Positions 15,844 to 32,131 of a stretch of 64,000 nt of DNA are shown piece after piece. Location: the NCBI GenBank assembly GCA_031459385.1, contig JAVKIP010000001.1, forward strand, positions 288,001-352,000. The letters run 5' to 3'. Both the position numbers and the translations under genes were made by a program. The notes below the pieces were generated by a model. That model made no database searches. It was not told where the DNA came from and saw only the letters and a list, made by a program, of their open reading frames with translations. Each line of letters starts with the position of its first letter. Within the stretch, counting starts at the first letter, position 1. Source of the DNA: Candidatus Fervidifonticultor secundus. Lineage in GTDB: Bacteria; Sysuimicrobiota; Sysuimicrobiia; Sysuimicrobiales; Humicultoraceae.

Positions 15844-15862
15844 ATTGTGGAAAGTAATTTCC
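15837..15862. promoter_or_regulatory. Candidate IclR-family operator: overlapping inverted repeats TTTCCA-N5-TGGAAA and GGAAA-N4-TTTCC
   Basis: Seen directly in an AT-rich patch overlapping the operon's first start codon, next to a divergent IclR gene. Confidence 0.6.
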
Positions 15863-15920
15863 TCTTTTGTTATCCTGCTCTTCGACGGAGGCAGGCGATT
15901 CCTCCTGCCGGGGGTGGTCG

Positions 15921-16709
15921 ATGGTCAAGGCTTTGGACAAGGCACTTGCCCTGCTCGCGATCATGGCGCCCACGCCGGAGCGGAGCGAGTGGAAACTCGT
16001 GGAACTCGCGAAACAGACGAGGCTCCCTCTCAGCACCGTCCATCGCCTGCTCAACGCGCTGGCGCAGCGTCGTTTTGTGGAGCGGGGGGAGGGCGGTCGG
16101 TACCGGCTCGGTCTGACGTTGCTGCAACTGGGTCACGCAGTCTGGGAGAACCTCCCGCTTCGGCAGATTGCCTGGCCCGTCATGGCCGATCTGGCCAGGC
16201 GCACGGAGGATACCGTCTATCTGACCATGCGCGACGGCGACGAGGGCGTCTACGTCGAGAAGATTGACAGTCAACTCTACCTGCGGATCGCCGAGCCGGT
16301 CGGCTTCCGTCGCCCGCTGTACGTCGGGGCGTCGCGGAAGGCGATGCTGGCGTTCCTCCCCCCAGGCGAGATCCGGCGCATCGTCCGGGAGGGGGCCTCA
16401 CGGAGCCTGCTCGGGCGGCGGGTGACGATCCAGGCCCTCCTATGCGAACTGCAGCGCATCCGGGAGGCTGGATACGCGATCACGTGGGGTGAGACCACGG
16501 AAGGGACCGCCGGGGTAGCCGCCCCGCTCATCGATGCCCGGGGGTGGCCGATCGGCGCCATCAGCGTCTCCGGACCCGCGCAACGGTTTCCCGCGGACCG
16601 ACTGCCCAAACTGGGCCAGCACGTGCGCGACGCGGCCGAGGTGATTAGCGGGAGACTTGGCTACGTCAAGAGCCCGCGGCACCTGCCCGGGTCCACGGCC
16701 GCGCGCTAG
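15921..16709 (+). CDS. IclR-family transcriptional regulator
   Basis: MVKALDKALALL, LPLSTVHRLL HTH, GASRKAMLAF, GVAAPL, AISVSGP. Confidence 0.93.
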   Translation: MVKALDKALALLAIMAPTPERSEWKLVELAKQTRLPLSTVHRLLNALAQRRFVERGEGGRYRLGLTLLQLGHAVWENLPLRQIAWPVMADLARRTEDTVYLTMRDGDEGVYVEKIDSQLYLRIAEPVGFRRPLYVGASRKAMLAFLPPGEIRRIVREGASRSLLGRRVTIQALLCELQRIREAGYAITWGETTEGTAGVAAPLIDARGWPIGAISVSGPAQRFPADRLPKLGQHVRDAAEVISGRLGYVKSPRHLPGSTAAR

Positions 16710-17260: not shown

Positions 17261-18391
17261 TCAGGCGCCGGTCGTCACGGGAACCTGCACGCCCAGCTCC
17301 TCCAGCACCGCGCGGATCGCCGCCAGCGCCCTGCGGATGTGCCCCTCGTCGATTCGCCCGATGCACCCGATGCGGAACGAGTCGACGCGGGTGAGTTTGC
17401 CAGGGTAGATCAGGTAACCGCGCCGTGCCAGGCGGTCGTAGAGCGCCTGGAAGTCGAACCGCGGGTCGGACGGCACGAGAAAGGTGACGATGACCGGCCC
17501 CTGCAGCGCGTCGGGCAGCAGCGTGCGGAAGCCCAGTGCCCGCATGCCTTCCATCAGCACCTGGCAGTTGCGCCGGTAGCGGGCCAGGCGGGCGGGGCTG
17601 CCGCCTTCGGCGGCGTGTTCCTCCAGCGCCCGGTCCAAGGCGGCCAGTACGTGCGTGGGCGGCGTGAACCGCCACTGGCCCGTCTCCTCCATGAAGCGCC
17701 ACTGGTCGGCCAGGTCGAGGACCACCGACGGTGCGTTGCCCGCGGCGGTCTCCAGCGCCGTGCGGCGCGCGATGACGAACGTCGCGCCGGGCACCCCCTC
17801 GAGGCACTTGTTGGGTGACGAGACCAGGGCGTCGTACGGCATGGTGCGGGTGTCGCAGGGCAGGGCGCCGAAGGCGCTCATGGCGTCCACGAGCAGCCGC
17901 CGCCCGGCGGCTGCCACCACGTCGGCCACCTCGGCCAGCGGGTTGACGATGCCGGAGGTCGTCTCGGAGTAGACGACGGCCACGTGGGTGACGGCCGCGT
18001 CGGTGGCCAGGGCCGCGGCCGCCACCTGTGGGTCCACGGCCTGGTCCTCGGCCCATTCCAGGACGGCGTGCGCGCGTCCCAGGACCCGGCAGATCTGCAC
18101 CATGCGGCGCCCGTAAGCGCCGTTGGCGAGGACGAGCACCTTGCCGTCACGGGGCACGAACGTGCCGAGCATCGCCTCCACCCCGAAGGTGCCCGAGCCC
18201 TGCAGGAGCACCGCCTCGTGGGTCCCCTCGCCGCCGGCGAGCTCGACGAGCCGGCGCCGTACGCGGGCCGTCATGGCCACGAACGCCGCATCACGCGATC
18301 CCCAGTCGCGCAACATCGCCTCGCGGACCGTCCGCGAGGTGGTCAGCGGGCCCGGAGTCAGCAGCACGGGCACGTCGTCGGTACGCATCAT
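17261..18391 (-). CDS. phnW: 2-aminoethylphosphonate--pyruvate transaminase
   Basis: LLTPGPLTTS, DWGSRD, QGSGT, NGAYG, ETTSG, DAMSAFG, SSPNKCLEGVPG, QWRFTPPTH, IYPGKLT; ATGA overlap with the permease. Confidence 0.95.
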   Translation of the reverse strand: MMRTDDVPVLLTPGPLTTSRTVREAMLRDWGSRDAAFVAMTARVRRRLVELAGGEGTHEAVLLQGSGTFGVEAMLGTFVPRDGKVLVLANGAYGRRMVQICRVLGRAHAVLEWAEDQAVDPQVAAAALATDAAVTHVAVVYSETTSGIVNPLAEVADVVAAAGRRLLVDAMSAFGALPCDTRTMPYDALVSSPNKCLEGVPGATFVIARRTALETAAGNAPSVVLDLADQWRFMEETGQWRFTPPTHVLAALDRALEEHAAEGGSPARLARYRRNCQVLMEGMRALGFRTLLPDALQGPVIVTFLVPSDPRFDFQALYDRLARRGYLIYPGKLTRVDSFRIGCIGRIDEGHIRRALAAIRAVLEELGVQVPVTTGA

Positions 18392-20094
18392 CGCCTCCGC
18401 CAGGCCTGGGTGCGCCGGTCGAGCCCCCGCGCCACCAGCAGGTGGAGCAGCTTCACCGCCGCCGACGTGTAGAAGATCATCATGGCCATGGCCGCGGCGG
18501 CGCCCTGCTGGCCGGTGTCGTCCATGTAGACCACCGCGATGGACGCCAGGCGGGTGTGCGGCGCCCACAGGAAGATTACTGCCGAGACTGTGGTCATGGC
18601 GTTGACGAACAGGTAGACCGCGATGTCGAGGATGGCTGGCAGGCACACCGGCACCGTGACGGCCCAGAGCGTGCGGTAGAACGGTGCCCGCAGCGACGCC
18701 GAGACGGCTTCGAACTCGGCGTCGAGCTGCTTGAGGGCCGTGGTCGCGGTCAGGTGGCTCACGGTGTAGAAGTGGACGATGGTGTTGATCACCATGATGG
18801 CCAGGGTGTTGTAGAGGAACCCCAGGGGGTTGGCGGGGTGGTTGAAGAAGAAGATGTAGCTGATGCCCAGCACCAGCCCCGGTACGGCTAAGGGCAGCAT
18901 GGCCAGCAGCTGCGTCAGGACCCGCACCGGTCCCCACCCCCGGGTCTTCTCCAGCAGGTAGGCGGTGGTGAAGACGATGGCCGTGCCCACCAGGGCCGCG
19001 GCCCCCGCCATCCTCAGAGAGTTCGTGTACGGCAGCCAGCCCTGGGTCTCGAAGCGGGCAAAGTTGTAGTTTTTCAGCCCCAGCGCCAGGTTGTAGGGCC
19101 AGAACGAGACAAACGAGCCCCACGCGGCCACCGCCAGTAGGCCCACGATGGGCACGGCGATGAGGGTACAGATGCCGAAGAACGTCCAGTCCACCGCCGG
19201 GCGCGGCCGGGGCTGGAGCGGCACCGCCTGGGGCGTGAGGGTGGCCTGCTGGCGGAGGCGCACGTAGCGTTCGGCCAGGAACGAGAGCACCGCGGGGACC
19301 AGCAGGATCATGCTGACCACGGCACCGGTCTCGAAGTTCTGGCGGCCGAAGACCTGCTTGTAGACGTCGGTGGCCAGCACGTTGAACTGTCCGCCGATGA
19401 CCTTGGGAATGCCGAAGTCGGTGATGACCAGGGTGAACACCACGAAGGCGGCGCTCATGAGGCCGTACTTGGCGCCGGGCACTGTGACCGTCAGGAAGAT
19501 CCGCCGGGGTGTGGCGCCCAGCGCGGCCGCCGACTCGTACAGCCGCGCGTCGGCCGTGGCCAGGGCGGTGGTCAAGATCATCAGGGCGTGGGGGAAGCAG
19601 TAGACGGCCTCGGCCGCGACGATCCCCAGCGGCCCGTAGATGGAGTGACCCAGCAGCCAGTCCCGGAGCAGCCCCTGGTTGCCGAACAGGTAGACCAGGG
19701 CCAGGGCCTGCAGCAGCGACGGTGCCAGGATGGGGACCAGCGCCACCGCGCCGAAGACCGCCTTGGCCTTCATGCTCGTGCGGGTCAGCGCATAGGCGTA
19801 GAGGAACGCAGCCGGCAGCACCAGCACCGTGGTGACCACCGCCACCCCCATGCTGTGCCAGATGGACGACGCCAGCGCAGGACTCGCCAGGTACTCGGCG
19901 TAGTTGGCCAAGCCCACGAACCGCCCGTCCCGGTCGAGGAACGACTTGGACAGCAGCGCCCACAGGGGACCCGCCACGGTCACCGCCAGCCACAGCGCCG
20001 CACCGGCCAGGCCCGCGCGGGCGAGGCGCTCGTCGGCAGCCAGCTGCCGGCGCAGGGGCCGGGCCGCCCGGGGGGTCAGCGCCGTCGTGACCAC
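18388..20094 (-). CDS. Putative 2-aminoethylphosphonate ABC transporter permease (PhnU2-like, duplicated TM domain)
   Basis: LVYLFGNQG, ADARLYE, TDFGIPKVIGG, HFYTVSHLTA, FVNAMTTVSAV. Confidence 0.9.
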   Translation of the reverse strand: MVTTALTPRAARPLRRQLAADERLARAGLAGAALWLAVTVAGPLWALLSKSFLDRDGRFVGLANYAEYLASPALASSIWHSMGVAVVTTVLVLPAAFLYAYALTRTSMKAKAVFGAVALVPILAPSLLQALALVYLFGNQGLLRDWLLGHSIYGPLGIVAAEAVYCFPHALMILTTALATADARLYESAAALGATPRRIFLTVTVPGAKYGLMSAAFVVFTLVITDFGIPKVIGGQFNVLATDVYKQVFGRQNFETGAVVSMILLVPAVLSFLAERYVRLRQQATLTPQAVPLQPRPRPAVDWTFFGICTLIAVPIVGLLAVAAWGSFVSFWPYNLALGLKNYNFARFETQGWLPYTNSLRMAGAAALVGTAIVFTTAYLLEKTRGWGPVRVLTQLLAMLPLAVPGLVLGISYIFFFNHPANPLGFLYNTLAIMVINTIVHFYTVSHLTATTALKQLDAEFEAVSASLRAPFYRTLWAVTVPVCLPAILDIAVYLFVNAMTTVSAVIFLWAPHTRLASIAVVYMDDTGQQGAAAAMAMMIFYTSAAVKLLHLLVARGLDRRTQAWRRR

Positions 20095-20100
20095 GGCGGC

Positions 20101-21180
20101 TCAGTCGCCGGGGAAGACGCGGACGCGGTCAGCAGGCACGGACACGGTGAGGGTCCGGCCCGGTGCCAGGTTCACCTCGCGGTGCAGGTGCGCGGGAACG
20201 TCGGCACGGAGGGCGGCGGCATCCGCTGCGGCCGGCCGGAGGGTGGCCCGGTAGAAGGATCCCAGGAAGTCGACGGCGACCACCTCGGCTGCGATGGTGT
20301 TGGGGGCACCGGTACGGGCGCCGCGAACGTCCACGTCCTCGGGGCGGAAGCAGACGCGCACCGGGCTCCCCGCCGACAGGCCGTCGGCAGGGGCGCAGGT
20401 CAGTTCTGTGGCACCGACACGCACGCGGTCAGGGCGCAGCAGGGTACCGCGGAGGAAGTTCATCTCGCCTACGAAGTCGGCGACGAAGGAGGTGGCAGGG
20501 TGTTGGTAGACGTCCATGGGCGTGCCGATCTGCTCGATGACGCCATGGTTCATGACCGCGATGCGGTCAGCCATGGTCAGGGCCTCCTCCTGATCGTGGG
20601 TGACCAGGATCGTCGTCACGCCCAGCTGGCGTTGCAGGTGGCGGACCTCGTGCCGCAGCCGTACCCGCAGGCGCGCGTCCAGTGCCGACAGCGGTTCGTC
20701 CAGGAGCAGGAGGCTCGGCGACGGCGCCAGGGCCCGGGCCAGCGCCACCCGCTGCTGCTGGCCGCCCGACAGCTGCGCGGGGTACTTGGTCCGCTCGCCC
20801 TGGAGGCCCACCAGGGCCAGCAACTCCTCCACCCGGGCGCGGATCTGGGCCCGGGTGAGCCCTCGGCCCTGGAGGCCGTAGCCGACGTTGTCGAAGACCG
20901 TCAGGTTGGGGAACAGGGCGTACGACTGGAAGACGATGCCGAAGTCGCGACGTGCTGGCGGCAGGCCGGAGATGTCGCGTCCTTCCCTGAGGACACGGCC
21001 GCGGGTCTGGACCTCCAGGCCCATGATGATCCGCAACAGCGTGGTCTTCCCGCACCCTGAGGGGCCGAGCAGGCAGACGAACTCGCCCCGGCCGACGTCG
21101 AAGCTGACGTCCCGCAGCGCCACGAACGCCCCAAACGTCTTCCAGATCTGCTCGACCTGGAGGTAACGGGCGTCGTGCAT
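20101..21180 (-). CDS. Putative 2-aminoethylphosphonate ABC transporter ATP-binding protein (PhnT2-like)
   Basis: [39 protein letters not shown]-like C-terminus. Confidence 0.9.
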
Positions 21181-21281: not shown

Positions 21282-22328
21282 CTACCGGGTGGGTTTGCCC
21301 TCGTAGCGGCGCACCCACTCCTTGAGGATGCGGTCACGGTTCTTCGCCATCCACTCGAAGTCGTTCTTGATCATCTTCGCTTCGCCGTCGGGCGGGTAGA
21401 ACGGCGGGAGGTTGGACATACCCGGCATCCCCACGATGGCGTACCACTGGTTGTACATCTCCATGGCTCTGCGGCTGACCGAGAAGTCGACCAGGCGGCG
21501 GGCAGCAGCCAGGTTGCGCGTCCCGCGGTGGATGGCCGTCGCCTCCATGTCCCACCCCGCGCCTTCCCTGGGGACGATGACGTCGATGGGCGCGCCTTCC
21601 TGCTTCAGCCGCGCGCCCCGCATGTCGAAGCCGATGCCCAGGGTGAACTCCCCCCGCGCCGCCTGGACGCAGGGCGCCGAGCCCGAATGGGTGTAGTGGC
21701 CGATGTTGTCGTGGACCTGGTCCATGAACTTCCAGCCGTCCTGCTCGCCGAACAGCTGGAGCCACGCCGAGACCGTCAGGAACCCGGTGCCCGAGGAGTT
21801 GGGGTTGGGCATGACCAGCAACCCCTTGTAGATGGAGTTGGTCAGGTCCTTCCACGACTGCGGCCGCCGGATGCCGCGCCGGGCCGCCTCCCGGGTGTTG
21901 AAGCACACCACCGAGAGGAAGGCGTCCATGCCGGTCCACGTCATGGGGTTCTTGCTGCTGCGGAACTGGGGCTTGAGCTGCTCGGCGCCTCGCGGGGTGT
22001 AGGGCTCGATCATGCCCAGCTCCTCGAAGAGGATGATGCTGGTCACCGCCAGCCCCCAGATGACGTCGGCCCGGGGGTTGGCGCGCTCAGCCAACAGGCG
22101 CGCGGTGACGACACCCGTCGAGTCCCGCACCCAGTCGATGACGATGCCCGGGTTCTCGCGCTCGAAGGTTTCCTTGTAGGGCCCGAGCTGGTCGTTCTCC
22201 AGCGCCGTGTAGACGGTCAGCCGGGTGACCTGAGCGCGGGCCTCGCCCAGCAGGCCCACGGCCAGGGCAGCGGCAACCACCGAGACCGCCAGGTACTGCG
22301 CTGTACGCGTCCACCGTCGTGCCGGCAT
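21282..22328 (-). CDS. Putative 2-aminoethylphosphonate ABC transporter substrate-binding protein (PhnS2-like)
   Basis: [48 protein letters not shown]. Confidence 0.9.
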
Positions 22329-22407: not shown

Positions 22408-23874
22408 CTACCCCGGCAGGCGCATGCGGATGCTTTTGACCTGCGTGTAGCTCAACAGCTCCTCCAGGCACTCCTCCCGCCCGATGCCGCTCTGCTTCAC
22501 CCCGCCGTAGGGCACGCCCAGGGCGTGGCCCCCCGGGATGTTGACCCACACATACCCCGCTTCGAGCCGGCGAGCCACCCGCAGCGCCCGGGCAGAGTCG
22601 CGGGTGTAGATTGCCGCGCTCAGCCCGTAGATGACCGCATTCGCCTGGCGGAGCATCTCCTCCTCGTCGTCCCACGTCAGGACGGCGATCACCGGGCCAA
22701 AGATCTCCTCCTGGGCGATGCGCATCTGTGGCCGCACGCCGTCGAACAGCGTGGGCTGCACGAAGAAGCCCCGGCGCAGCGCCGGATCCTCGGGCGGGCC
22801 GCCGCCGTAGAGGAGGCGGGCGCCCTCGCGGCGGCCGGCCTCGATGTATTCCAGGACCTTCTCATACTGTTCCCGCGACACCAGGCACCCGACCTGGCTG
22901 TCGTCGGCCTCGGGCAGGCCCAGACGCAGCACCCGCAGCCGGGCCAGCAGGGCGTCGACGAACGCGTCGTGCAGGTCGCGGTGGACGAACACCCGGGAGG
23001 TGCTGCTGCACGACTGCCCGGCGCGGTTGAGGTTCATGGCTCCCACCGCCGCCTCGGCCGCCTCGTCGGGCGGGACGTCCGGGAACAGGATCAGCGGGTT
23101 CTTGCCGCCCAGCTCCAGCGTGACCACCTTGAGCCCATCGGCGGCGGCCCGCATGACCGCCCGCCCGGCTTCCACCGAGCCGATCAGGGCGACCCGCCGC
23201 ACCAGGGGGTGGCGGACCAGGGCCGCGCCGGTCGTGGGACCGTCGCCGGTCACGATGTTCACGACGCCCGGCGGGAACAGGTCCGCTACCAGGCGGCCCA
23301 GCACCAGGGACGAGAGGGGGGCCTGCTCGGGCGGTTTGATGACCACGGTGTTGCCGGCCGCCAGCGGCGCCGCCAGCTTCTCGGCCGCGAACCGCAGCGG
23401 GTGGTTGTACGGGTTGATCTTGGCCACGACGCCGTAGGGCTCGCGCACCGTGCACGCAAACTCGCCGAGGCCGGTAGGGTACGTTTCCCCTTTGAGTTCG
23501 GGGGTCAGCCCGGCGAAGTAGTCCAGCGCCTCCGCCGCCCAGTCCACGTCGCGGCGCATGCCGGTGATCACGTTGCCCGAGTTGAGGGCGTCCAGCCGCG
23601 CCAACACGTCGCGGTGCTGGCGGAGGGCGGTGGCCAGCTGACGCAGCCGCACCGCGCGCTCGGCCGGCGGGGTGGCGGTCCAGGCGGGAGCTGCCGCGTG
23701 CGCTGCAGTGACGGCGAGATCGACGTCGGCTTCGTCGGCCAGCGGGACGTGGGCCAGCACTTCCCGGGTGGCGGGGTTGTAGGTCGGCAGGGTACGGCCG
23801 GACCGGCTCTCTTCCCAGCGCCCGCCGATGAACAGCCGGCCGACCGGCAGCTCGTCGAGCAGCGTCACGGACAT
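22408..23874 (-). CDS. Aldehyde dehydrogenase (candidate phosphonoacetaldehyde dehydrogenase)
   Basis: PYNHP, KPPEQ, LELGGKNP, AGQSCSS (catalytic Cys), EEIFGP, PYGGVKQSG. Confidence 0.9.
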   Translation of the reverse strand: MSVTLLDELPVGRLFIGGRWEESRSGRTLPTYNPATREVLAHVPLADEADVDLAVTAAHAAAPAWTATPPAERAVRLRQLATALRQHRDVLARLDALNSGNVITGMRRDVDWAAEALDYFAGLTPELKGETYPTGLGEFACTVREPYGVVAKINPYNHPLRFAAEKLAAPLAAGNTVVIKPPEQAPLSSLVLGRLVADLFPPGVVNIVTGDGPTTGAALVRHPLVRRVALIGSVEAGRAVMRAAADGLKVVTLELGGKNPLILFPDVPPDEAAEAAVGAMNLNRAGQSCSSTSRVFVHRDLHDAFVDALLARLRVLRLGLPEADDSQVGCLVSREQYEKVLEYIEAGRREGARLLYGGGPPEDPALRRGFFVQPTLFDGVRPQMRIAQEEIFGPVIAVLTWDDEEEMLRQANAVIYGLSAAIYTRDSARALRVARRLEAGYVWVNIPGGHALGVPYGGVKQSGIGREECLEELLSYTQVKSIRMRLPG

Positions 23875-24078: not shown

Positions 24079-24945
24079 CTACCCGGGGTGCGGGACTGCC
24101 AGCCGCTCGGGCGGCAGCGTGCGCTCCGGCGGCCCGTCGTAGAACTCCGGTTTCTGCAGCTCCAGGTCCAGCGGTTGCACGATGGGTGCCTGCGTCGAGG
24201 CCCGCCAGCCGCGCTCGCGGTGCATCTCCTCGTAGGTGTGGGCGATGAGCCCTACCGTCCGCGACAGCAGGTAGACGCCCTTGATCAGGTCCACGTCGAA
24301 CCCCATGTCCATGCAGATGGCGCCCACCGCCCCGGGGCCGTTCAGGTAGAGGCGCCGACCCCAGAACTCCTCGGTGGCCGCCTCGATGGCCCGGGCCATG
24401 GCCACGTGTCGCCCGGCCACCCCGTAGGCGTCGGCCAGCTCCAGCAGGCGCGCGGTGCGCGGGTCGACGATGTGCTGCGCATGGTGGTAGCCAGGCAGCC
24501 GTCGGCCCTCCCGCCGCGCCTCGCCGGCGACGCGGCGCGCGGTCTCCTCGAGGGTGAGACCTTCTTGGTCCATGCGGGCGATCGCCTCCTTGAACAGCGC
24601 CGCGGGCCGGTCGGCCGTGCCGTGGAGCGCGCCGAGGGCGAGCAGCCCGCCCGCCACGCCCACGTGCAGCGGCACACCGCCCGAGGTGACGAAGCGGCAG
24701 GCCGCCGACGACGGCGAGAACGCGTGCTCGCACTGGTTCACCAGAATGGCATCGAGCATGCGGGCGTGGTGCTCGGGGGGCAACTCGCCGCGCCAGACCA
24801 GGTAGGCCATCTCGGCGAACGAGACCCGACCCGTCAGGTCGTTGATGTTGTACCCGCGGACCACCACGCGGTCCCGGGTCTTGTAGGCGATGGCGGTACG
24901 CCAGTGGAATGGCTCCCGGCGCGGTGTCGCTGCGGCTGGTTCCAT
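24079..24945 (-). CDS. Citrate synthase-fold protein (citryl-CoA lyase family) with altered active site
   Basis: WRTAIA...VVVRGY..DL.G..SFAE...L.WRGELP N-terminus, DPRTARL, SRTVGLIAH..EE, YDGP; GGAGG RBS. Confidence 0.85.
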   Translation of the reverse strand: MEPAAATPRREPFHWRTAIAYKTRDRVVVRGYNINDLTGRVSFAEMAYLVWRGELPPEHHARMLDAILVNQCEHAFSPSSAACRFVTSGGVPLHVGVAGGLLALGALHGTADRPAALFKEAIARMDQEGLTLEETARRVAGEARREGRRLPGYHHAQHIVDPRTARLLELADAYGVAGRHVAMARAIEAATEEFWGRRLYLNGPGAVGAICMDMGFDVDLIKGVYLLSRTVGLIAHTYEEMHRERGWRASTQAPIVQPLDLELQKPEFYDGPPERTLPPERLAVPHPG

Positions 24946-24990: not shown

Positions 24991-25824
24991 CTATCGCGGC
25001 GCCGGCCGGACGCCGGCGACGGTGGCGTCGTCGGACCTCAGGTAGACACGCTGCGGGTCGAGCTCTTCGCGCAGCACCCGCAGGTCCTCGGCCTCTGGCG
25101 GTGCCACCGTGCCCACGTCCGCCGCCACCTCGGGCCGGAACCCTGTCTGGGCCAGGACGTCGTCCACGCGCACCCCCGGCATCAGGCGCGTCAGGCGCAG
25201 CGTGCACGTCACGGGATCGCTTTCGAGCACCGCCAGGTCGGTGACCACGGTCACGGCGAAGTCGGGAGACAGCCCGGCCCGCTGGCGGGCCCCGGGGCCG
25301 TCGAGGAACCCGGGGCTGGTGATGTAGTCGCACCGCTCGGGGAACCGGCGCCTCTCGTGGTGGGCGATGATGAGCAGCCGTCGGCAGTGGCTGGCCATAT
25401 CGTTGGCACCGCCGCTGCCCGGCAGCCGGCGGCGCAGCGCGCCCGGCGGGCCGATCTGCGTCGAGTTGATGTTGGCGTGGCGGTCGATCTGCGCGCCGCC
25501 CAGGAAGCCCACGTCGATCAGCCCCCGCTGGAGCAGGCCGCCCAGCACCTCCCGCAGCGTGCCCAGGCGCATCGCACGCGCCATGACCTTGGGGTCAGAG
25601 ACCGAGATCGGTGTCGGCCGCACCAGCGGCGCGATGACGCCGCTCTCGATGACCATGACGACACCCGGGGCGTGGCGGCGCTGCGCCAGGGCCGTGGCCA
25701 GCAGGGGCAGACCCGTGCCGACGAAGACCACCTCGCCGTCGCGCAGGCGGCGGGCGGCCTCGATCACCATGAGCTCCTGGTGACTGAAGGCGCGCGCCCG
25801 GTCGGTGCCCGTCGCCTGAGGCAC
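24991..25824 (-). CDS. Family I CoA-transferase beta subunit (GctB/CatJ-like)
   Basis: VFVGTGLP, MVIESG (catalytic Glu), GFLGGAQID, RLPGSGGAND, VVTDL. Confidence 0.9.
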   Translation of the reverse strand: MPQATGTDRARAFSHQELMVIEAARRLRDGEVVFVGTGLPLLATALAQRRHAPGVVMVIESGVIAPLVRPTPISVSDPKVMARAMRLGTLREVLGGLLQRGLIDVGFLGGAQIDRHANINSTQIGPPGALRRRLPGSGGANDMASHCRRLLIIAHHERRRFPERCDYITSPGFLDGPGARQRAGLSPDFAVTVVTDLAVLESDPVTCTLRLTRLMPGVRVDDVLAQTGFRPEVAADVGTVAPPEAEDLRVLREELDPQRVYLRSDDATVAGVRPAPR

Positions 25825-25867: not shown

Positions 25868-26863
25868 CTACAGCACCTCCCGCATGGCCGCGCGCAGCGC
25901 CGCCAGGCGCGCCGGGCCCGCGGTCCGCGCCAGGTAGTCGTCGAAGGACGGACAGTCCCACACCGTCGCCTGGAGGTACGCGTCTACCGCGGCCGGTCCG
26001 GCGCGGGCCGCCTCCTGGTAGCGGGCGACTTCGAGCGCGTCGTAGTCGTAGTGGCCGTAGACCGACGTGGGGTAGGCGCCGAACGGCTGGACCACCACGG
26101 CGTCGACGTACATGAAGGGCACCGTCGTCCGCTCGGGGGCGGCCCGGATCTCGTCGGTCGAGATCAACTCCTCGCACGAGACGACCACGGCCCGCGAGGC
26201 GCGCAGCATCTCGGGCTCGTGGGTGGCGAAGCCTTCGATGACGAGGTTGCCGAGCGGGTCGGCGCGCTGGACGTGCACGATGGAGACGTCGGGCTGCAGC
26301 GCCGGCACCAGGACCACGGGCTCGCCCGGCGCCCAGGGGTTGTCGACGACCACGGCCTTGCCGGGCCCGCGCGGCGCGGGCGTGTCGGCGCCCGGCGCCG
26401 CGGCACCCCGCCCCCCGTGGGGCGCCGCACCCGCAGGGGGGACCCCCAGCATGTCGGAGCCCAGCAGGCTGCGCGTCGGCATGAACGGCACGCCCATCTC
26501 ACCGGCCAGGAAGCGGCTGACCATGGCCAGGTGGCTGTAGTCCTCATGCTCCAGGGTGCCGTCCTCGATGCCGCGGCGCCAGCAAAACGTCACCCCGAAC
26601 CGCTCCAGGTTGCCCGAGCCCGACTCGGTGCGCCGGACCAGGCCGGCGCCGACCAGCTGGTCCATGCCGATCGACAGGTTGCAGCCCACCACGGTCAGGC
26701 CGCCGATGCGCTGGCGGATGATCTCGTGGGTCAGCGCCTGGGGACAGCGACCGATGTTCTGGCCGCCCATGCCCAGCACGCTGCCCGGCCGCACGAAGCG
26801 CGCGACCGCCTCGGCTGCTGTCATGACTTTGGGCGCGGTGCGGGCCGCGGCGGGAACTGCCAC
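25868..26863 (-). CDS. Family I CoA-transferase alpha subunit (GctA/CatI-like)
   Basis: KVMTAAEAVARFV, GVPFMPTRSLLGSD, PALQPDVSIVHVQRAD, PFGAYPT; GTG 26863 after GGAGG. Confidence 0.9.
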   Translation of the reverse strand: MAVPAAARTAPKVMTAAEAVARFVRPGSVLGMGGQNIGRCPQALTHEIIRQRIGGLTVVGCNLSIGMDQLVGAGLVRRTESGSGNLERFGVTFCWRRGIEDGTLEHEDYSHLAMVSRFLAGEMGVPFMPTRSLLGSDMLGVPPAGAAPHGGRGAAAPGADTPAPRGPGKAVVVDNPWAPGEPVVLVPALQPDVSIVHVQRADPLGNLVIEGFATHEPEMLRASRAVVVSCEELISTDEIRAAPERTTVPFMYVDAVVVQPFGAYPTSVYGHYDYDALEVARYQEAARAGPAAVDAYLQATVWDCPSFDDYLARTAGPARLAALRAAMREVL

Positions 26864-26947
26864 TGCCGACCTCCAGGGGCACGCTGGCTTGCCTGCATTA
26901 TGGGAGGGGGCCTGGATAATGTCAAATAAGAGATGCGCGACGTTTTC

Positions 26948-26960
26948 TAAGAAGATATTA
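26948..26960. promoter_or_regulatory. LysR recognition box T-N11-A (TAA-N7-TTA)
   Basis: TAAGAAGATATTA in the AT-rich divergent intergenic region, 3 nt before the LysR ATG. Confidence 0.6.
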
Positions 26961-26963
26961 TAG

Positions 26964-27926
26964 ATGGCGATGGCGCGCGCGCCCCTGCCCCTGGGCCCCC
27001 TGCGCACGTTCCACCAGGTGGTGGTCCACCAGGCTTTCAACCGGGCCGCGCGCGCCCTGGGCGTCACGCAGCCCGCGGTCACCCAGCAGATGCGCCGGCT
27101 CGAGCGGGCCACAGGCGTCACCCTCTTCGAGCGCGACGGCCGCCGGCTGGTGCTCACCGAGGCCGGCCGGGCCCTGGCCGTCTACACGCAGCGCATCTTC
27201 GACCTGGTGGACGCCGCGCAGGACGCCCTGGCCGGCGCCCGCGAGCTGCGCACCGGCATCCTGCGGGTGGGCGCCAGTCGCACGGCCGGCGCCTACTACA
27301 TCGCCGACCTGCTCGACCGCTTCAAGCAGCGCTACCCCGGCGTGAAGGTGAGTTTGACGGTGGGGAACTCCCAGCTCGTCCTCGACCGGATCCGGGAGTT
27401 CTCACTGCACGCCGGACTCGTCGCCGGCCGGCCCGACGACGCGGCGCTGGTGACCCGGCCGCTGGTCCGGGACCGGATGCTCGTGGTGCTGCCCCCGCGC
27501 CACCCGCTGGCGCAGCAGGCCCGCGTCTCCATTCGCGACCTGCAGGGCTGGCCCCTCATCATGCGCGAGCCGGGCTCCACGACGCGCCACCTCATCGAAC
27601 AGGCTGCGGCGGCACGCGGGGTGCTCGTCGACGCCGCGATGGAGCTCGAGAGCAACGAGGCCATCAAGAGCGCGGTGGCCGACGGGATCGGGGTGGCGAT
27701 CATGGCCCACGCCGCCGTGGCCCAGGACCTGGCGAGCGGCCGTCTGGTCGGCCGCCCGTTGCGCGAGGCCCTGGCGCTGGACTTCGCGCTGGTCTACCAC
27801 CGCGACCGGGTGCTGGCGCCCGTGCTGGCGGCGTTCCTGGCGTTGCTGCCGGCGCGCGCACGCCGCGGCGCCGGTGCCCCCGGAGGAAAGCACACGCCGG
27901 GGCAGGAACCAAGGGGCCGGCGTTAG
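26964..27926 (+). CDS. LysR-family transcriptional regulator of the phosphonate locus
   Basis: FNRAARALGVTQPAVTQQMRRLE, LFER, LTEAG, REPGSTTR, ESNEAIK. Confidence 0.93.
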   Translation: MAMARAPLPLGPLRTFHQVVVHQAFNRAARALGVTQPAVTQQMRRLERATGVTLFERDGRRLVLTEAGRALAVYTQRIFDLVDAAQDALAGARELRTGILRVGASRTAGAYYIADLLDRFKQRYPGVKVSLTVGNSQLVLDRIREFSLHAGLVAGRPDDAALVTRPLVRDRMLVVLPPRHPLAQQARVSIRDLQGWPLIMREPGSTTRHLIEQAAAARGVLVDAAMELESNEAIKSAVADGIGVAIMAHAAVAQDLASGRLVGRPLREALALDFALVYHRDRVLAPVLAAFLALLPARARRGAGAPGGKHTPGQEPRGRR

Positions 27927-27943: not shown

Positions 27944-29308
27944 ATGGACCGCGTCGTGCCCAAACCGTCCGAAGGCGACCTGAACCTCTCCCCCCGGCGC
28001 ACGGCCTGGCAGGCCGCGATGCTCGACGACGCCACCCGCGCCCTCCTGGACGAGGACGCCCGCTACTTCCTCCACCAGGCACTCTCGACCCCCTGCCTGA
28101 ACGCGCTGCGCCGCTGCGAGGGCATCTACCTCGAGGACCTGCAGGGACGCCGCTACATGGACTTCCACGGGAACAGCGTCCATCAGGTCGGCTTCGGCAA
28201 CCCCGCGGTGGTGGCGGCGGTCAAGGCGCAGCTGGACGCGCTGAGCTTCTGCCCGCGGCGGTTCACCAACGAGCCGGCGGTGGCGCTGGCCAGGACGCTG
28301 GCGCGCCTGGCGCCCGGCGACCTGCACAAGGTGCTGTTCTGCCCCAGCGGCACGGGCGCCATCGGCATCGCGCTGAAGCTGGCCCGCGCGGTCACCGGCC
28401 GTTACAAGACCATCTCCATGTGGGACGCGTTCCACGGTGCCTCCCTCGACGCGATCTCGGTGGGCGGCGAGGAGCTGTTCCGCCGCGACGCCGGCCCGCT
28501 GCTCCCCGGCACCGAGCACGTGCCGCCCCCTGACCCCTACCGCTGCGTGTGGGACTGCCAGACGCGCGGCGGGTGCGACCTGAAGTGCGCTGGCTACATC
28601 GAGTACGTGCTCGAGAAGGAAGGCGACGTGGCGGCCGTGATCGCGGAGACGGTGCGGGCGACGCCGGTGATTCCGCACCGCGCGTTCTGGTCGACCGTGC
28701 GGGCGGCCTGCGACCGCCACGGGGCGCTGTTGATCCTCGACGAGATCCCCACGGCGCTGGGCCGCACCGGCGCCATGTTCGCCTGCGAGCACTACGACGT
28801 CGTTCCCGACATCCTGGTGCTGGGAAAGGGCCTGGGTGGCGGCATCCTCCCCCTGGCCGCGGTCCTTGCCCGCGAGCGTTTCGATGTGGCGGCCGACCGG
28901 GCGCTGGGCCACTACACGCACGAGAAGAGTCCCGTGGCCGCCGCCGCGGCCCTGGCCACGCTGCAGTACATCGAGGACCACGGCCTGGTCGCGCACGCCC
29001 GCACGCTGGGCCGCTATGCCCTGGACCGGCTGCGCGCGATGCAGGCGCGCCACCCGTTGATCGGCGACGTGCGGGGGCTGGGGTTGCTGCTGGGCGTCGA
29101 GCTGGTCACCGACCGCGGCACACGCGCGCGGGCCACCGCTGAGGCCGAGGCGGTCTTGTACGCGGCACTGTCCCGCGGCCTGAGCTTCAAGGTCAGCATG
29201 GGGAACATCCTGACCCTGAGCCCGCCGCTCGTGATCACCCGGGCCGAGATGGACCGCGCCCTGGACATCCTGGACGAGAGCCTGACGGAGGTCGAGCGGA
29301 GCCGATGA
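27944..29308 (+). CDS. pbfA: (R)-1-hydroxy-2-aminoethylphosphonate ammonia-lyase-like class III PLP enzyme
   Basis: SEGDLNLSPRR, FLHQALSTPCL, DFHGNSVHQ, PRRFTN, WDAFHGASLD, LGKGLGGG, LGHYTHEKSP, FKVSMGN; located in a phnW cluster. Confidence 0.85.
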   Translation: MDRVVPKPSEGDLNLSPRRTAWQAAMLDDATRALLDEDARYFLHQALSTPCLNALRRCEGIYLEDLQGRRYMDFHGNSVHQVGFGNPAVVAAVKAQLDALSFCPRRFTNEPAVALARTLARLAPGDLHKVLFCPSGTGAIGIALKLARAVTGRYKTISMWDAFHGASLDAISVGGEELFRRDAGPLLPGTEHVPPPDPYRCVWDCQTRGGCDLKCAGYIEYVLEKEGDVAAVIAETVRATPVIPHRAFWSTVRAACDRHGALLILDEIPTALGRTGAMFACEHYDVVPDILVLGKGLGGGILPLAAVLARERFDVAADRALGHYTHEKSPVAAAAALATLQYIEDHGLVAHARTLGRYALDRLRAMQARHPLIGDVRGLGLLLGVELVTDRGTRARATAEAEAVLYAALSRGLSFKVSMGNILTLSPPLVITRAEMDRALDILDESLTEVERSR

Positions 29309-29964
29309 TCGTCCAGCCCGACCTGGCGCCGGGGCAGACGCTACTCTACACGCTGCGCCACGGCCTCACCGAGCTGAACCGCTCCAAGCGCACCGGCGGC
29401 CGCCTGGACGTGCCGCTGACCGCGGAAGGTCGCCGGCAGGCCGAGGAGGCCCGCGAGCAGTTCGCGGGCACGGCGCTCGACGTCGTGATCGCCTCCAGCC
29501 TGGGCCGCGCGATTGAGACCGCCGAGATCGTCACGGGGTGGGCGCGGGAGCAGATGATCATCGACGATCTGGCGGTCGAGCGCAGCTTCGGCCAGATGGA
29601 AGGCCTCACCCAGGACGAGATCCGCGAGCGGTTCCCGGACGTGATCTACGTGCCGATCGACCACATCCGCTACTCCCTCAACCCGCCGGGTGGGGAGTCG
29701 TTCGAGGCGCTCCGCACCCGGGCCCGGGCGTTCCTGGCCCGCGTGCTCGCGGCCCACCGCGGCAAGCGCGTGCTGGTCTCCTCGCACCAGAACTTCATGC
29801 AGCAGCTCCACGGCGAGCTGCGGGGCCTCGACCCCTATGCGGCGCTTAAGTACGACATCCTGAACCTGGAGCTGAACCAGTTCCACCTGGACGCCGACGG
29901 TCGGCTGCTCGCCCACCGCGTCTACCAGCTCTGCCCCGACGCCTCGAAGTACCCCTCGTTCTGA
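29305..29964 (+). CDS. Histidine phosphatase (PGAM) family protein
   Basis: LRHG, DVPLT, SSLGRAIETA, ERSFGQMEG, PGGES, SSH; ATGA overlap with pbfA. Confidence 0.88.
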   Translation: MIVQPDLAPGQTLLYTLRHGLTELNRSKRTGGRLDVPLTAEGRRQAEEAREQFAGTALDVVIASSLGRAIETAEIVTGWAREQMIIDDLAVERSFGQMEGLTQDEIRERFPDVIYVPIDHIRYSLNPPGGESFEALRTRARAFLARVLAAHRGKRVLVSSHQNFMQQLHGELRGLDPYAALKYDILNLELNQFHLDADGRLLAHRVYQLCPDASKYPSF

Positions 29965-29981: not shown

Positions 29982-31280
29982 GTGGCAGCGGGCACCCGGC
30001 GGCTGCAGGCGGTGGTCGAGGCCCTGGCCGCGCGCCTGTGGCAGCGATTCCCCCCGCAGGTCCGCGGGCTGCGGCGGGTGGGCCGCGAGGCCGAGTTCCC
30101 GGTGGTCTGGCCGGACGGCCGGGCCGGCGAGGTTGCGCGCCTGTGGGACGGTCTGCGCGCCGACGCTGGTGCCCGCGTCCGGTACGATGACCCCGACCGG
30201 CGGACGATCATCGAGCGCGTGGACATCGGTGATGTCGGCTACGAGGTCGAGGTCGGCCGGGCCACCGTCGAGGTGGTGCTGCCGCCCGCCGACGATCTGC
30301 ATGGGCTGGCCGCGGCCTCCGCGGTGGCTGTGGGCCGGCTGGCGCGCGTAGCGGCCGCGGAGCGCCTGCGTATCCTCGGGTACGGCATTCAGCCCCGGGC
30401 GCGGGCCCGACCCGGCCTGATCACTCCCAAGCGCCGCTACGCCGCGTTCCACCGCAGTGTCGGCCGGCCCTGGCTGCCGTTCACGACCACGGCCAGCGAC
30501 CAGGTGCACGTGGACGTCGGGCGCGACGAGCTCATCGAGGTGACCAACGTCATGAACCTGCTGTCAGGCGCCATCATCGCGCTGACGGCCAACTCGTCCG
30601 TCTACGCAGGACAGGTCGGGCGCTTCTGCTCCGGCCGGGAAGGGCTGCTGCGCGTGCTGGGCGACCGCCACGGCATGCCGCCCCGGCCCTTCGCAGACCT
30701 GGAGGATTACGTGTGGTTCGTCTGCCAGCAGCCGTGTGCCGTGCTGCGGCGGGGCCACGACTACGTGGCGTACGGCCGGCCGCTGGCGGCATACGTCGGG
30801 GCGCGCGGGCCAGACCTCGACGCGTTCCTCTGGCACGAGCACTACCTCTGGTACAGCGCGCGGCCGCGGGCGCAGCACGCCACCGTCGAGGTCCGGCCGG
30901 CCTGCCAGCAGCCGCCCGACGACCCCCTGGCGGCTGCCGCCCTGGCCCTCGCGCTGGTGGAGGGCTGGCGCGAGGCGCGGGCGCTGGTGGCCGACGCGCT
31001 CGGCACCGACGCGCGGGGACCCGATGCCTGGCAGGCGATGGCGGCCTACCGGCAGGCGGCGATCCGCGACGGCATCCGCGCGGCTGAGCCTGCCCCGCGG
31101 TTCCTGGCCCGGCTGCTGGACGTGGCGGAGGCGGCTCTGCGCCGGCGCGGGCGCGGCGAAGAACGCCTCCTCGCCGGCCTCCGGCGCCGGGTGGAGCGGC
31201 GCCGGCTGCCGGCTGACGACGCCGCGGCGGCGTTCCGGCGCGGCGGCGCGGCGGCGCTGGTGGCGACCCGGGCGCTGTAG
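29982..31280 (+). CDS. Glutamate--cysteine ligase family (GCS2/EgtA-like) carboxylate-amine ligase
   Basis: VGREAE, TASDQVHVD, ALTANS, ARPR, TVEVRPACQQP. Confidence 0.75.
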   Translation: MAAGTRRLQAVVEALAARLWQRFPPQVRGLRRVGREAEFPVVWPDGRAGEVARLWDGLRADAGARVRYDDPDRRTIIERVDIGDVGYEVEVGRATVEVVLPPADDLHGLAAASAVAVGRLARVAAAERLRILGYGIQPRARARPGLITPKRRYAAFHRSVGRPWLPFTTTASDQVHVDVGRDELIEVTNVMNLLSGAIIALTANSSVYAGQVGRFCSGREGLLRVLGDRHGMPPRPFADLEDYVWFVCQQPCAVLRRGHDYVAYGRPLAAYVGARGPDLDAFLWHEHYLWYSARPRAQHATVEVRPACQQPPDDPLAAAALALALVEGWREARALVADALGTDARGPDAWQAMAAYRQAAIRDGIRAAEPAPRFLARLLDVAEAALRRRGRGEERLLAGLRRRVERRRLPADDAAAAFRRGGAAALVATRAL

Positions 31281-31360: not shown

Positions 31361-32131
31361 ATGGGGCGGCTCGACGGCAAGGTCGTGTTGATCACGGGCG
31401 CGGGCAGCGGCATGGGCCGTGTCGCGTCCGTGCGCTTCGCGCGCGAGGGCGCGCGGATCGTGGTGGCAGAGGTGGCCGAGGCCGCCGGGCGCGAGACGGC
31501 CGGTGAGGTCCGCGCCGCCGGCGGCGAGGCGCTCTTCGTGCGCACCGATGTCGCGCGGGAGGCCGACGTGGCCGCGGCGGTCCGCGCGGGCGAGGAGGCG
31601 TTCGGCCGCATCGACGTCCTCTACAACAACGCCGGGATCTTCCCCCCGGACGACGGGTCGGTCGTCGACCTGGACGAGGCGGTCTGGGACCGGGTGATGG
31701 CCATCAACCTCAAGGGCATCTACCTGGTCTGCAAGCACGGCATTCCGGCGCTGCTGCGCGCCGGCGGTGGGTCGGTGATCAACATCGCCAGCTTCGTGGC
31801 CCTGGTGGGGTGCACCGTGCCGCAGGACGCCTACACCGCCAGCAAGGGCGGGGTGATCGCCCTCACGAAATCGCTGGCGGTGCAGTTCGGGCCCCGGGGC
31901 ATCCGTACCAACGCCATCTGCCCCGGGCCCATCGAGACCCCGCTGCTGACGCAGTGGCTGCTCACCAACCCCGAGGCGAAGGCGGTGCGCCTGGCGCGCA
32001 TCCCCATGGGCCGCTTCGGGCGGCCTGACGATATCGTCGCGCTGGCGCTCTACCTGGCCAGCGACGAGTCGGCCTGGACCAACGGCGCCGTGCTGGTGGT
32101 GGACGGCGGGATCACGTCGAACTACTTCTGA
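31361..32131 (+). CDS. Short-chain dehydrogenase/reductase
   Basis: TGAGSGMG, NNAG, YTASK, PGPIET, VDGG. Confidence 0.93.
   Translation: MGRLDGKVVLITGAGSGMGRVASVRFAREGARIVVAEVAEAAGRETAGEVRAAGGEALFVRTDVAREADVAAAVRAGEEAFGRIDVLYNNAGIFPPDDGSVVDLDEAVWDRVMAINLKGIYLVCKHGIPALLRAGGGSVINIASFVALVGCTVPQDAYTASKGGVIALTKSLAVQFGPRGIRTNAICPGPIETPLLTQWLLTNPEAKAVRLARIPMGRFGRPDDIVALALYLASDESAWTNGAVLVVDGGITSNYF

Follow-up and report, generated by a model that had tools for sequence, protein, structure and literature searches.

A citryl-CoA lyase-like protein without the catalytic aspartate, a candidate phosphonoacetyl-CoA hydrolase in a 2-aminoethylphosphonate operon

The lyase-like protein and its operon

The stretch of Candidatus Fervidifonticultor secundus analysed here (contig JAVKIP010000001.1, positions 288,001 to 352,000; 64,000 nt, hereafter the window; G+C content approximately 72%) carries genes for transport and conversion of 2-aminoethylphosphonate (AEP). 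Among them, an open reading frame at 24079-24945 on the reverse strand encodes a protein of 288 aa which resembles citryl-coenzyme A (CoA) lyases and is labelled CCLl in the following. Sequence comparisons tip the balance towards CCLl being a hydrolase for the carbon-phosphorus (C-P) bond of phosphonoacetyl-CoA that acts with a dedicated CoA-transferase, as a third, CoA-dependent ending of the hydrolytic AEP pathway. The genes of the locus are as follows.

24079..24945, reverse strand: CCLl, protein of the citryl-CoA lyase fold without the catalytic Asp (PF00285, alignment to 6HXP_A, AlphaFold2 model, Foldseek)
25868..26824, reverse strand: CoA-transferase subunit A, first gene of the operon (PF01144, E 5.2e-25; start set at ATG 26824)
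24991..25824, reverse strand: CoA-transferase subunit B, glutaconate CoA-transferase type (PF01144, E 1.8e-27; GctB 1POI_B, E 3.8e-47)
22408..23874, reverse strand: aldehyde dehydrogenase, NAD(P)-dependent hydrolytic type (PF00171, E 1.3e-153)
21282..22328, reverse strand: PhnS2, substrate-binding protein of an AEP ATP-binding cassette transporter (TIGR03261, 453.6 bits, cut-off 392.75)
20101..21180, reverse strand: PhnT2, ATP-binding subunit (TIGR03265, 513.2 bits, cut-off 457.7)
18388..20094, reverse strand: PhnU2, permease (TIGR03262, 774.7 bits, cut-off 593.25)
17261..18391, reverse strand: PhnW, AEP:pyruvate transaminase, last gene of the operon (NF010006, 532.5 bits, cut-off 296)
26964..27926, forward strand: LysR-type regulator, divergent (TIGR03339, 245.2 bits, below the cut-off of 341.1)
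27944..29308, forward strand: PbfA (NF049939, 723.4 bits, cut-off 525)
29305..29964, forward strand: histidine phosphatase (Pfam His_Phos_1)
29982..31280, forward strand: carboxylate-amine ligase of the GCS2/YbdK type (Pfam GCS2)
31361..32131, forward strand: short-chain dehydrogenase/reductase (Pfam adh_short_C2)

The reading frame of CCLl extends from ATG to stop, and GGAGGAGG precedes the ATG. CCLl matches the Pfam family PF00285 (Citrate_synt, E 1e-32) and passes the NCBIfam "citryl-CoA lyase" subfamily models NF004869 (216.5 bits, cut-off 212) and NF004868 (202.3 bits, cut-off 193), but it scores below the cut-off of the subfamily model NF004866 (237.8/245) and of all three equivalog models (177/261, 111.8/409, and 96.3/323). 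Protein Atlas gave only generic clusters named "putative citrate synthase". The closest relative of solved structure is the citryl-CoA lyase 6HXP_A of Hydrogenobacter thermophilus (phmmer E 5.7e-46), with which CCLl shares its size and 35% of its residues. An AlphaFold2 model built from 126 sequences reached a pLDDT of 93.6 and a pTM of 0.87, and supersedes an earlier model from 23 close homologues with a pLDDT of only 73.9. In Foldseek, this model superimposes on 6hxp with a target-normalised TM score of 0.92 and a root-mean-square deviation of 1.8 A, followed by the citryl-CoA-lyase modules of ATP-citrate lyases. By its predicted structure, CCLl belongs to the citryl-CoA lyase fold family.

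The phmmer alignment pairs DHG of 6HXP with E73-H74-A75, HGG with H108-G109-T110, GYGH with G152-Y153-H154-H155, and NVDG with N202-G203-P204-G205, so that Pro204 takes the position of Asp. The four substitutions named in the original prediction (EHA, HGT, GYHH, and NGPG) are thus borne out by this alignment, and the His residues and the DPR motif are retained as claimed there (H108 and H155, both of the catalytic set, and D161-P162-R163). The pig citrate synthase numbers of the equivalent residues are presumably His238, His274, His320, and Asp375. Like citryl-CoA lyase, CCLl keeps the two His, DPR and the SR Arg, which we take to bind oxaloacetate and to stabilise the acetyl-CoA enolate in that family. 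Unlike citryl-CoA lyase, it has NGPG for NVDG, EHA for DHG, an extra His before the conserved His, then QH with a deletion of one residue, and a new conserved C-terminal tail.

For a survey of these motifs, 1.84 billion representatives were searched and 147 short citrate-synthase-like proteins aligned. Most of them retain [DE]HG, HGG, GxGH, and NxDG, whereas all members more than 50% identical to CCLl carry EHA, G[FY]HH[AP]QH, and N[GA][PV]G. Judged by this alignment, the motif changes of CCLl are family traits and not noise. No subfamily member has Asp at the NVDG position, which leaves the His-His-Asp catalytic set incomplete. Not all details of the predicted motifs are constant: the position of T110 is occupied by S, V, D or P in other clades, and NGPG is replaced by NAVG or NAPG, so that the constant feature is the absence of Asp and not the presence of Pro. 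Across 41 sequences of the family (five clades and three sister clusters, see below), 41 positions are invariant, among them E73, H74, A75, H108, Q157, H158, D161, R163, N202, G205, R229, and H236. Conserved are furthermore an N-terminal FxW motif and the C-terminal tail with R248, S250, Q264, P266, Y269, G271, P272, and R275, which is missing in the alignment consensus of the wider family.

A second group of short citrate-synthase-like proteins without the Asp was observed, with the motifs EHG / V[FL][VL]G / GxGHPxH / VNxTGA (loci L133-L138, L141, and L145; clusters P0151, P0152, P0165, P0192, and P0270). This group has other residues in place of the enolate-stabilising His as well as of the Asp.

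The genes of both CoA-transferase subunits, CCLl and the aldehyde dehydrogenase are co-directional with those of PhnS2, PhnT2, PhnU2, and PhnW and separated by short gaps; subunit B is situated upstream of CCLl at a distance of 45 nt. PhnW, PhnS2, PhnT2, PhnU2, and PbfA all exceed curated equivalog cut-offs. Of 54 families, the LysR subfamily of aminoethylphosphonate catabolism (TIGR03339) matches the divergent regulator best, although below its cut-off. The IESG segment of subunit B aligns to IVESG of GctB (1POI_B); we take the catalytic Glu of the beta subunit to be Glu54 of GctB, and a transferase of this type presumably uses acetyl-CoA as donor for a dicarboxylate. By the PF01144 matches of both subunits and this alignment, the pair belongs to the glutaconate type of family I CoA-transferases. 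The aldehyde dehydrogenase is closest to betaine-aldehyde dehydrogenases (best NCBIfam match BADH, 466.5 bits, below the cut-off of 668.6) and falls outside the PhnY subfamily (TIGR03250, 233.9 bits, cut-off 635.65). It carries the segments ELGGKNP and GQSCSS, in our understanding those of hydrolytic aldehyde dehydrogenases. From its sequence and position it is proposed to be a phosphonoacetaldehyde dehydrogenase, i.e., to fill the function of PhnY from a different subfamily.

The divergent intergenic region of 140 nt between the genes of subunit A and the LysR regulator contains an AT-rich ATAAT...ATTAT stretch at 26905-26960, the region being otherwise 72% G+C; this stretch is a candidate LysR operator. 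The genes of the histidine phosphatase, the GCS2-type ligase and the short-chain dehydrogenase/reductase are co-directional with the PbfA gene. The same trio adjoins AEP transporter and PhnW genes even in relatives without the transferase and CCLl (L175:2478-5608 and L177:1223-3150), and may process a modified, e.g., gamma-glutamylated, aminophosphonate. At 13745-16709, genes of a class-I/II aminotransferase and a DUF1932/NAD-binding dehydrogenase are located divergently from an IclR regulator gene, whose best match is the regulator BhcR of the beta-hydroxyaspartate cycle (152 bits, below cut-off).

The source genome (3.3 Mb, 59 contigs, 97.6% complete) was searched for known C-P-cleaving enzymes. 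In this assembly, the best match of PhnX reached 54.2 bits (cut-off 220) and that of PhnA 28.6 bits (cut-off 407.55), and no match of PhnJ, the marker of C-P lyase, was found; a hidden copy of any of the three elsewhere in the genome was dismissed on the ground of these searches. Since the organism has an AEP importer and two routes to phosphonoacetaldehyde and none of the known C-P breakers, CCLl is the best candidate for the release of phosphate.

Relatives and their gene neighbourhoods

A word-indexed search returned 375 homologues of CCLl. The best 120 of these, for which identities and names were given, are 62-93% identical to CCLl and are named only "citryl-CoA lyase" or "citrate synthase" by their sources. 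Scanning GTDB (one genome per species) with two motifs of the family itself as patterns yielded 97 relatives, and 80 loci were kept. A quick IQ-TREE analysis divides these into five clades, comprising the uncultured lineage of the window (19 loci), Rokubacteria/Methylomirabilota/Myxococcota (5), Actinomycetota (40), Chloroflexota (3), and Spirochaetota (13). Neighbours were detected by tblastn with the proteins of the window and with validated relatives.

Of the 72 loci whose upstream flank spans 2 kb or more, 59 have a GctAB-type CoA-transferase pair within 1.5 kb upstream of CCLl. This arrangement was observed throughout the own lineage (15/15), the Rokubacteria/Methylomirabilota/Myxococcota (4/4) and the actinomycetes (40/40), and neither in the Chloroflexi (0/3) nor in the Spirochaetes (0/10). 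An aldehyde dehydrogenase gene is present at 51 of the 80 loci. Since its type (BADH-like in the own lineage, similar to alpha-ketoglutarate-semialdehyde dehydrogenase in the actinomycetes) and also its position vary between clades, the CoA-transferase and CCLl form the constant core.

Strict phosphonate markers, i.e., PhnW-type, PhnS2/U2, PbfA, and PepM/Ppd genes, occur at 32 of the 80 loci. The PhnW-like proteins of the Spirochaetes, Methylomirabilota and Rokubacteria loci score 364-397 bits and exceed the PhnW-AepZ cut-off of 360.8 bits; those of the actinomycetes remain just below it (320-329 bits), with PhnW-AepZ still as the best family. Flanks of 10 kb were too short for many actinomycetes, so that CCLl and PhnW-like genes were located genome-wide in all 40. 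A PhnW-like gene was found in 35 of them, as a single copy in all but one. In 29 genomes it is situated on the contig of CCLl, at a distance of 2.4-32.6 kb (median 10.7 kb, genome sizes 2-13 Mb), and in six draft assemblies on another contig. Two of the five actinomycetes without PhnW are Sciscionella, in which a gene of a TIGR03364 (PbfD-family) FAD oxidase (404.8 bits, cut-off 285) is located directly upstream of the aldehyde dehydrogenase gene. PbfD enzymes form phosphonoacetaldehyde by oxidation of AEP and N-methyl-AEP, in particular where a cluster lacks PhnW (PMC10590968). PbfA occurs among the neighbours of CCLl in the loci of the relatives and in metagenome loci as well, and at some loci of the own lineage (L020, L021, L025-L028) a class-III aminotransferase takes the place of PhnW and the AEP transporter. 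Judged by their family matches, the neighbouring enzymes converge across phyla on the formation of phosphonoacetaldehyde. The expectation that this subfamily tracks with phosphonate genes holds for at least four phyla and fails at several loci.

In the Streptosporangiales, the neighbourhoods also hold genes of a NUDIX hydrolase, a PF01663 protein, a PHO4 phosphate transporter, and a LysR regulator. The PF01663 protein (513-574 aa, no NCBIfam match) is encoded between the CCLl cluster and PhnW, adjoining the PHO4 transporter (L076:11359-13083, L049:17546-19087, and 10 further Streptosporangiales loci), and from its family could be a phosphonate or phosphodiester hydrolase. The NUDIX hydrolase gene recurs adjoining CCLl in actinomycetes and in both sister clades described next (L070:11715-12170, L076:10819-11301, L058:12987-13451, L122:1223-1789, L091, and L095). 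The L122 copy is NudE-like (103.5 bits, below cut-off), and the enzyme may act on a CoA or nucleotide derivative.

Metagenomes were scanned with the three nearest 50%-clusters, P0123, P0124, and P0130 (38-51% identical to CCLl), which resulted in 80 loci; five metagenome loci are fully syntenic copies of the window cluster. The P0124 clade carries EHA / GLGQPQH and the P0123 clade EHA / GWHHPQH. Directly downstream of the CCLl homologue, a CoA-acylating aldehyde dehydrogenase is encoded at 4 of 7 loci of P0124 and 6 of 10 loci of P0123. Its best model is SauS (NF047625, 477-482 bits, below the cut-off of 600), while models of acetylating acetaldehyde dehydrogenase give 308-378 bits. The CoA-transferase pair is present at the sister-clade loci L094, L123, and L124 as well. 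At L092 the order is HD-domain protein, LysR, CCLl, SauS-like dehydrogenase, PhoU-like protein, tripartite ATP-independent periplasmic transporter, and Zn alcohol dehydrogenase, the last of which matches TIGR03366 ("phosphonate catabolism associated") with 311.9 bits, just under the cut-off of 328.1. The nearest relatives of these dehydrogenases act on anionic aldehydes: alpha-ketoglutarate-semialdehyde dehydrogenase in the case of the actinomycete enzyme, and the sulfoacetaldehyde enzyme in the case of the acylating one. Outside the Spirochaetes and Chloroflexi, the predicted role of the CCLl neighbour is to make the CoA ester of an X-CH2-CO- acid, either by a transferase fed by a hydrolytic aldehyde dehydrogenase or by an acylating dehydrogenase; in the relatives paired with SauS-like enzymes, the aldehyde would be turned directly into that CoA ester.

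Distribution relative to PhnX, PhnA, and PhnJ

Among 53 other genomes with CCLl, PhnX passes its cut-off in none, although no positive control exceeded the PhnX cut-off in these searches, and PhnA passes in three (G021, G025, and G033). PhnJ was found in 2 of 24 other CCLl genomes tested. For the phylum of the window, 94 genomes including the source genome were surveyed, with G069 and G077 counted for presence only. CCLl occurs in 23 of them, PhnW in 13, PhnA in 12, and PhnX above cut-off in none (again without a positive control); two genomes hold PhnX-like genes below the threshold (173-178 bits). CCLl and PhnA do not occur together in any of the 94 genomes. In one family of 23 genomes, PhnA is present in 12 (two genera), CCLl in 9 (four genera), and both in none; the two genomes with neither gene are 65% and 68% complete. 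Hypergeometric p values of 0.027 for the phylum and 7e-5 for the family were obtained, which overstate the exclusion, kin not being independent.

Ten of the 13 PhnW genomes of the phylum contain CCLl, and G072 the PhnX-like gene. In G072 as well as in G056 and G059, the operon of AEP transporter and PhnW directly abuts the histidine-phosphatase operon, and the block of LysR, both CoA-transferase subunits, CCLl and aldehyde dehydrogenase is absent. Between PhnS2 and the PbfA operon, this block is found either whole or not at all. In the sister genera with PhnA, the PhnA gene adjoins PbfA (L182) or a class-III aminotransferase (L181 and L183) of the type that follows the transferase and CCLl in other genera. 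Mutual exclusion together with shared neighbours is the pattern expected if CoA-transferase plus CCLl and PhnA do the same job. Relatives lacking CCLl also encode a malate-synthase-like protein, two dimethylglycine-dehydrogenase-like proteins (DAO and GCV_T) and a class-III aminotransferase, convergent to PhnW (L175:10990-19047, L176:1536-9594, and L177:12357-19196).

Proposed reaction, rival explanations and known systems

In the proposed pathway, the aldehyde dehydrogenase would oxidise phosphonoacetaldehyde to phosphonoacetate, and the CoA-transferase would convert acetyl-CoA and phosphonoacetate to phosphonoacetyl-CoA and acetate. CCLl would then bind phosphonoacetyl-CoA, a look-alike of malonyl-CoA, with the conserved His108 polarising the carbonyl group of the thioester in the manner of citrate synthase. 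The phosphonate would occupy the former oxaloacetate pocket, lined by H74, H154, H155, H158, R163, R229, and perhaps R248 and R275 of the tail; compared to citryl-CoA lyase this pocket would keep His74, His155, Arg163, and Arg229 and gain His154, Gln157, and His158. Loss of the Asp would spare the phosphonate a clash with a negative charge. Attack of water on phosphorus would break the C-P bond, with the acetyl-CoA enolate leaving, and yield acetyl-CoA and phosphate. Acetyl-CoA would return to the transferase, and the net reaction would be phosphonoacetate + H2O to acetate + phosphate. The chemistry, with an enolate as leaving group, would stay that of the family, while the broken bond would be C-P instead of C-C.

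Several observations weigh against this reading. PhnW and PbfA both make phosphonoacetaldehyde, and we infer every step thereafter. With the Asp gone, we could identify no residue that protonates the enolate, and the loss itself is weaker evidence of new chemistry than it seems since, for ATP-citrate lyase, it is under dispute whether the corresponding residue, Asp1026, serves as general base (PMC10115795). Of the 65 loci flanked by 8 kb or more, only 27 contain a strict phosphonate marker, and none was found at L030, L035, L037, and L044 (Spirochaetes), L038, L039, and L041 (Chloroflexi), L079, L021, L027, and L028; no phosphonate context was seen at any of the three Chloroflexi loci. In the Streptosporangiales, the PF01663 protein, which shares the Pfam family of PhnA, could from this membership be the real phosphonoacetate hydrolase. 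Regarding the distribution, three actinomycete genomes hold both PhnA and CCLl, the PhnX searches had no positive control above cut-off, and relatedness of the genomes makes the exclusion statistics overstate the case. G056 and G059 are positive for PhnW and have neither CCLl nor PhnA nor PhnX above cut-off, and may contain another undescribed C-P enzyme or route of this lineage.

The copies of the Spirochaetes belong to the same side of the balance. None of their 13 loci has a transferase or dehydrogenase gene nearby, and four of them lie in PepM-Ppd phosphonate-biosynthesis clusters (L040:9980-12125, L060:5332-10828, L055:9974-17136, and L036:9992-16952). These clusters comprise a PepM-cytidylyltransferase fusion, Ppd, an AEP transaminase or Fe alcohol dehydrogenase, and polysaccharide genes; at L040 the CCLl gene overlaps pepM by 11 nt, and at L060 it ends the operon. 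A purely catabolic role leaves these copies unexplained. It is possible that they clear phosphonoacetyl-CoA arising from leaked phosphonoacetaldehyde, a housekeeping against toxic side products, but this assumption is ad hoc. Two further Spirochaete loci are located near PhnS2/U2-like transporters, and the remaining ones show no phosphonate gene. At L045:4414-7939, genes of LarB, a split LarC and LarE (nickel-pincer cofactor) were observed just upstream of CCLl and a PhnS2/U2-like transporter cluster.

Among the five Spirochaete carrier genomes searched, two encode a GctB-like CoA-transferase and all five SauS-like proteins, four of which score 521-573 bits, whereas that of G007 is a partial match of 230 aa (255.7 bits). 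The SauS-like genes were rejected as partners of CCLl because of contexts of their own that resemble pyrimidine or beta-alanine degradation: they adjoin an MmdA-like carboxyltransferase gene, or those of an NCS2 permease, an amidase and a class-III aminotransferase (L172:8020-11014, L174:8051-11042, L171, and L173). These contexts suggest a route from malonate semialdehyde to malonyl-CoA.

The main rival explanation takes CCLl for a CoA-independent phosphonoacetaldehyde hydrolase, an analogue of PhnX, whose product acetaldehyde would be turned into acetyl-CoA by aldehyde dehydrogenase and CoA-transferase or by the acylating dehydrogenase. Phosphonoacetaldehyde is indeed supplied in every context, the Spirochaete copies lack a transferase, the SauS-like enzyme is related to acetylating acetaldehyde dehydrogenases, and PhnX was not detected above cut-off in the 53 other CCLl genomes (as said, without a positive control). 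However, the exclusion observed concerns PhnA, the enzyme of phosphonoacetate, and not PhnX, and inside PepM-Ppd operons a phosphonoacetaldehyde hydrolase would destroy the pathway intermediate. The conserved core of transferase and CCLl with a variable dehydrogenase would then link the first step with the third. Moreover, the dehydrogenases are closest to enzymes for anionic aldehydes, the fold of CCLl binds acyl-CoA, and a GctAB-type transferase presumably makes acetate instead of consuming it, so that we hold this explanation to be quite unlikely. Alternatively, CCLl might act on another beta-substituted acetyl-CoA, as malonyl-CoA decarboxylase or sulfoacetyl-CoA lyase, with a separate enzyme cleaving the C-P bond. 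The three CoA esters are isosteres, and the loci with a class-III aminotransferase, the Spirochaete SauS-like genes beside an MmdA-like carboxyltransferase, and the hint at another C-P enzyme in G056 and G059 point in this direction. Against it stand the equivalog-level phosphonate genes (transporter, PhnW, and PbfA) in the same operon pair and the exclusion of PhnA in the phylum, and the aminotransferase-type loci encode proteins 74-76% identical to CCLl of the window with identical motifs, L020 also with PbfA. Direct decarboxylation of malonate semialdehyde, furthermore, needs none of this machinery. Malonyl-CoA or sulfoacetyl-CoA activity for parts of the family does not explain the operon of the window, and as an account of CCLl this alternative appears unlikely.

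Even if phosphonoacetyl-CoA is bound, CCLl might hydrolyse the thioester, transfer the phosphoryl group to an acceptor or catalyse a condensation, as could be expected from the lost Asp, the new invariant His, Gln, and Glu residues and the presence of the gene in biosynthetic PepM clusters. The transferase would be futile if the thioester were hydrolysed, and a phosphate-yielding pathway needs C-P cleavage, for which the operon offers no other candidate; we therefore give such reactions little credence. Least credible is an ordinary citryl-CoA lyase, a small citrate synthase or a non-catalytic relic, in spite of the passed subfamily models and the corresponding annotation by the sources. Although the whole family lacks the Asp, over 40 positions remain invariant from phylum to phylum, which argues for a working, different active site; the equivalog models failed, no context of the tricarboxylic acid cycle or its reductive form was seen in the window or at the loci of the relatives, and the genome encodes separate full-length citrate-synthase-like genes. 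An ordinary citryl-CoA lyase was discarded on account of the Asp loss and the phosphonate context, in agreement with the original prediction. The hydrolysis of phosphonoacetyl-CoA by CCLl, also put forward there, gains from the phosphonate context in at least four phyla, the partner making a CoA ester and the exclusion of PhnA in the phylum, and loses by the Spirochaete loci without a transferase and the loci without a marker.

Compared to citryl-CoA lyase, the proposed reaction likewise expels the acetyl-CoA enolate, but the partners of CCLl are a CoA-transferase and phosphonate genes instead of citryl-CoA synthetase, and the bond would be C-P and not C-C. With the PhnW-PhnY-PhnA pathway the CCLl system shares the first steps, phosphonoacetate as intermediate, and PbfA and aminotransferases as neighbours; in both, the beta-carbonyl group activates the C-P bond, as proposed for the version with CCLl. 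According to a 2023 review, PhnA belongs to the alkaline-phosphatase superfamily, contains Zn and acts on the free acid (PMC10574752), whereas the CCLl route would first convert the acid to the CoA thioester. CCLl lies outside the PhnA family (PF01663/TIGR02335) and has an unrelated fold, so that the resemblance is functional only, by way of the complementary distribution, and the aldehyde dehydrogenase of the window is, as mentioned, not of the PhnY subfamily. PhnX, the phosphonatase of the haloacid dehalogenase family, is the alternative ending of AEP degradation after PhnW or PbfA. It differs from CCLl in fold and uses Schiff-base catalysis on the aldehyde, and its route involves neither CoA nor an oxidation step.

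Similar to the cycles of citrate lyase and malonate decarboxylase, a transferase would load the acid on an acetyl thioester carrier, a second enzyme would cleave it, and the acetyl thioester would be regenerated. Those systems use a prosthetic group bound to an acyl carrier protein, and their lyase or decarboxylase subunits are unrelated to CCLl; the CCLl system has free CoA as carrier, a GctAB-type transferase, and an enzyme of the citrate synthase fold. A further parallel is the sulfoacetate pathway of SauT and SauS, with an isosteric CoA ester and with SauS as the best model of the acylating dehydrogenase in the sister clades. In that pathway, SauS forms the aldehyde by reduction of sulfoacetyl-CoA, and a thiamine-diphosphate enzyme then carries out the desulfonation. 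To our knowledge, no enzyme cleaves a C-S or C-P bond at the level of the CoA ester.

In the open literature (subscription journals lay outside the search), "phosphonoacetyl-CoA" was found only in one 2026 preprint on flavophos, as an expected product that was not formed, and no description of a CoA-dependent ending of AEP or phosphonoacetate degradation with a CoA-transferase or citryl-CoA lyase was found there. As far as its accessible text goes, a 2025 genomic-context paper defines AEP clusters by PhnW with PhnX or PhnY/PhnA, and "CoA" does not occur in it (PMC12366243). The accessible sections of the 2023 review likewise give only PhnX and PhnY/PhnA as endings (PMC10574752), and those of a survey of pepM neighbourhoods mention only the FrbC-type "citrate-synthase-like" reaction (PMC8942020). 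Since AEP-cluster surveys are defined by PhnX or PhnY/PhnA (PMC12366243), clusters with CCLl are invisible to them. Of the features of hydrolytic AEP clusters, the window contains PhnW and the AEP transporter and lacks a known C-P hydrolase and a dehydrogenase of the PhnY subfamily.

Soils and oceans contain organic phosphorus in large amounts as phosphonates, with AEP as a common natural representative. If the proposed function is true, CCLl would constitute a new enzyme family and CoA thioesters a new substrate class for the cleavage of C-P bonds, with a citrate-synthase active site turned from C-C to C-P chemistry. It would extend the beta-carbonyl-assisted phosphonate hydrolases and the PhnW-PhnY-PhnA pathway by a CoA-dependent version, which would replace PhnA in the soil actinomycetes Nonomuraea, Streptosporangium, Actinomadura, Catenulispora, and Sciscionella and in several uncultured phyla. 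Estimates of which soil actinomycetes and uncultured lineages live on phosphonates would then have to be revised.

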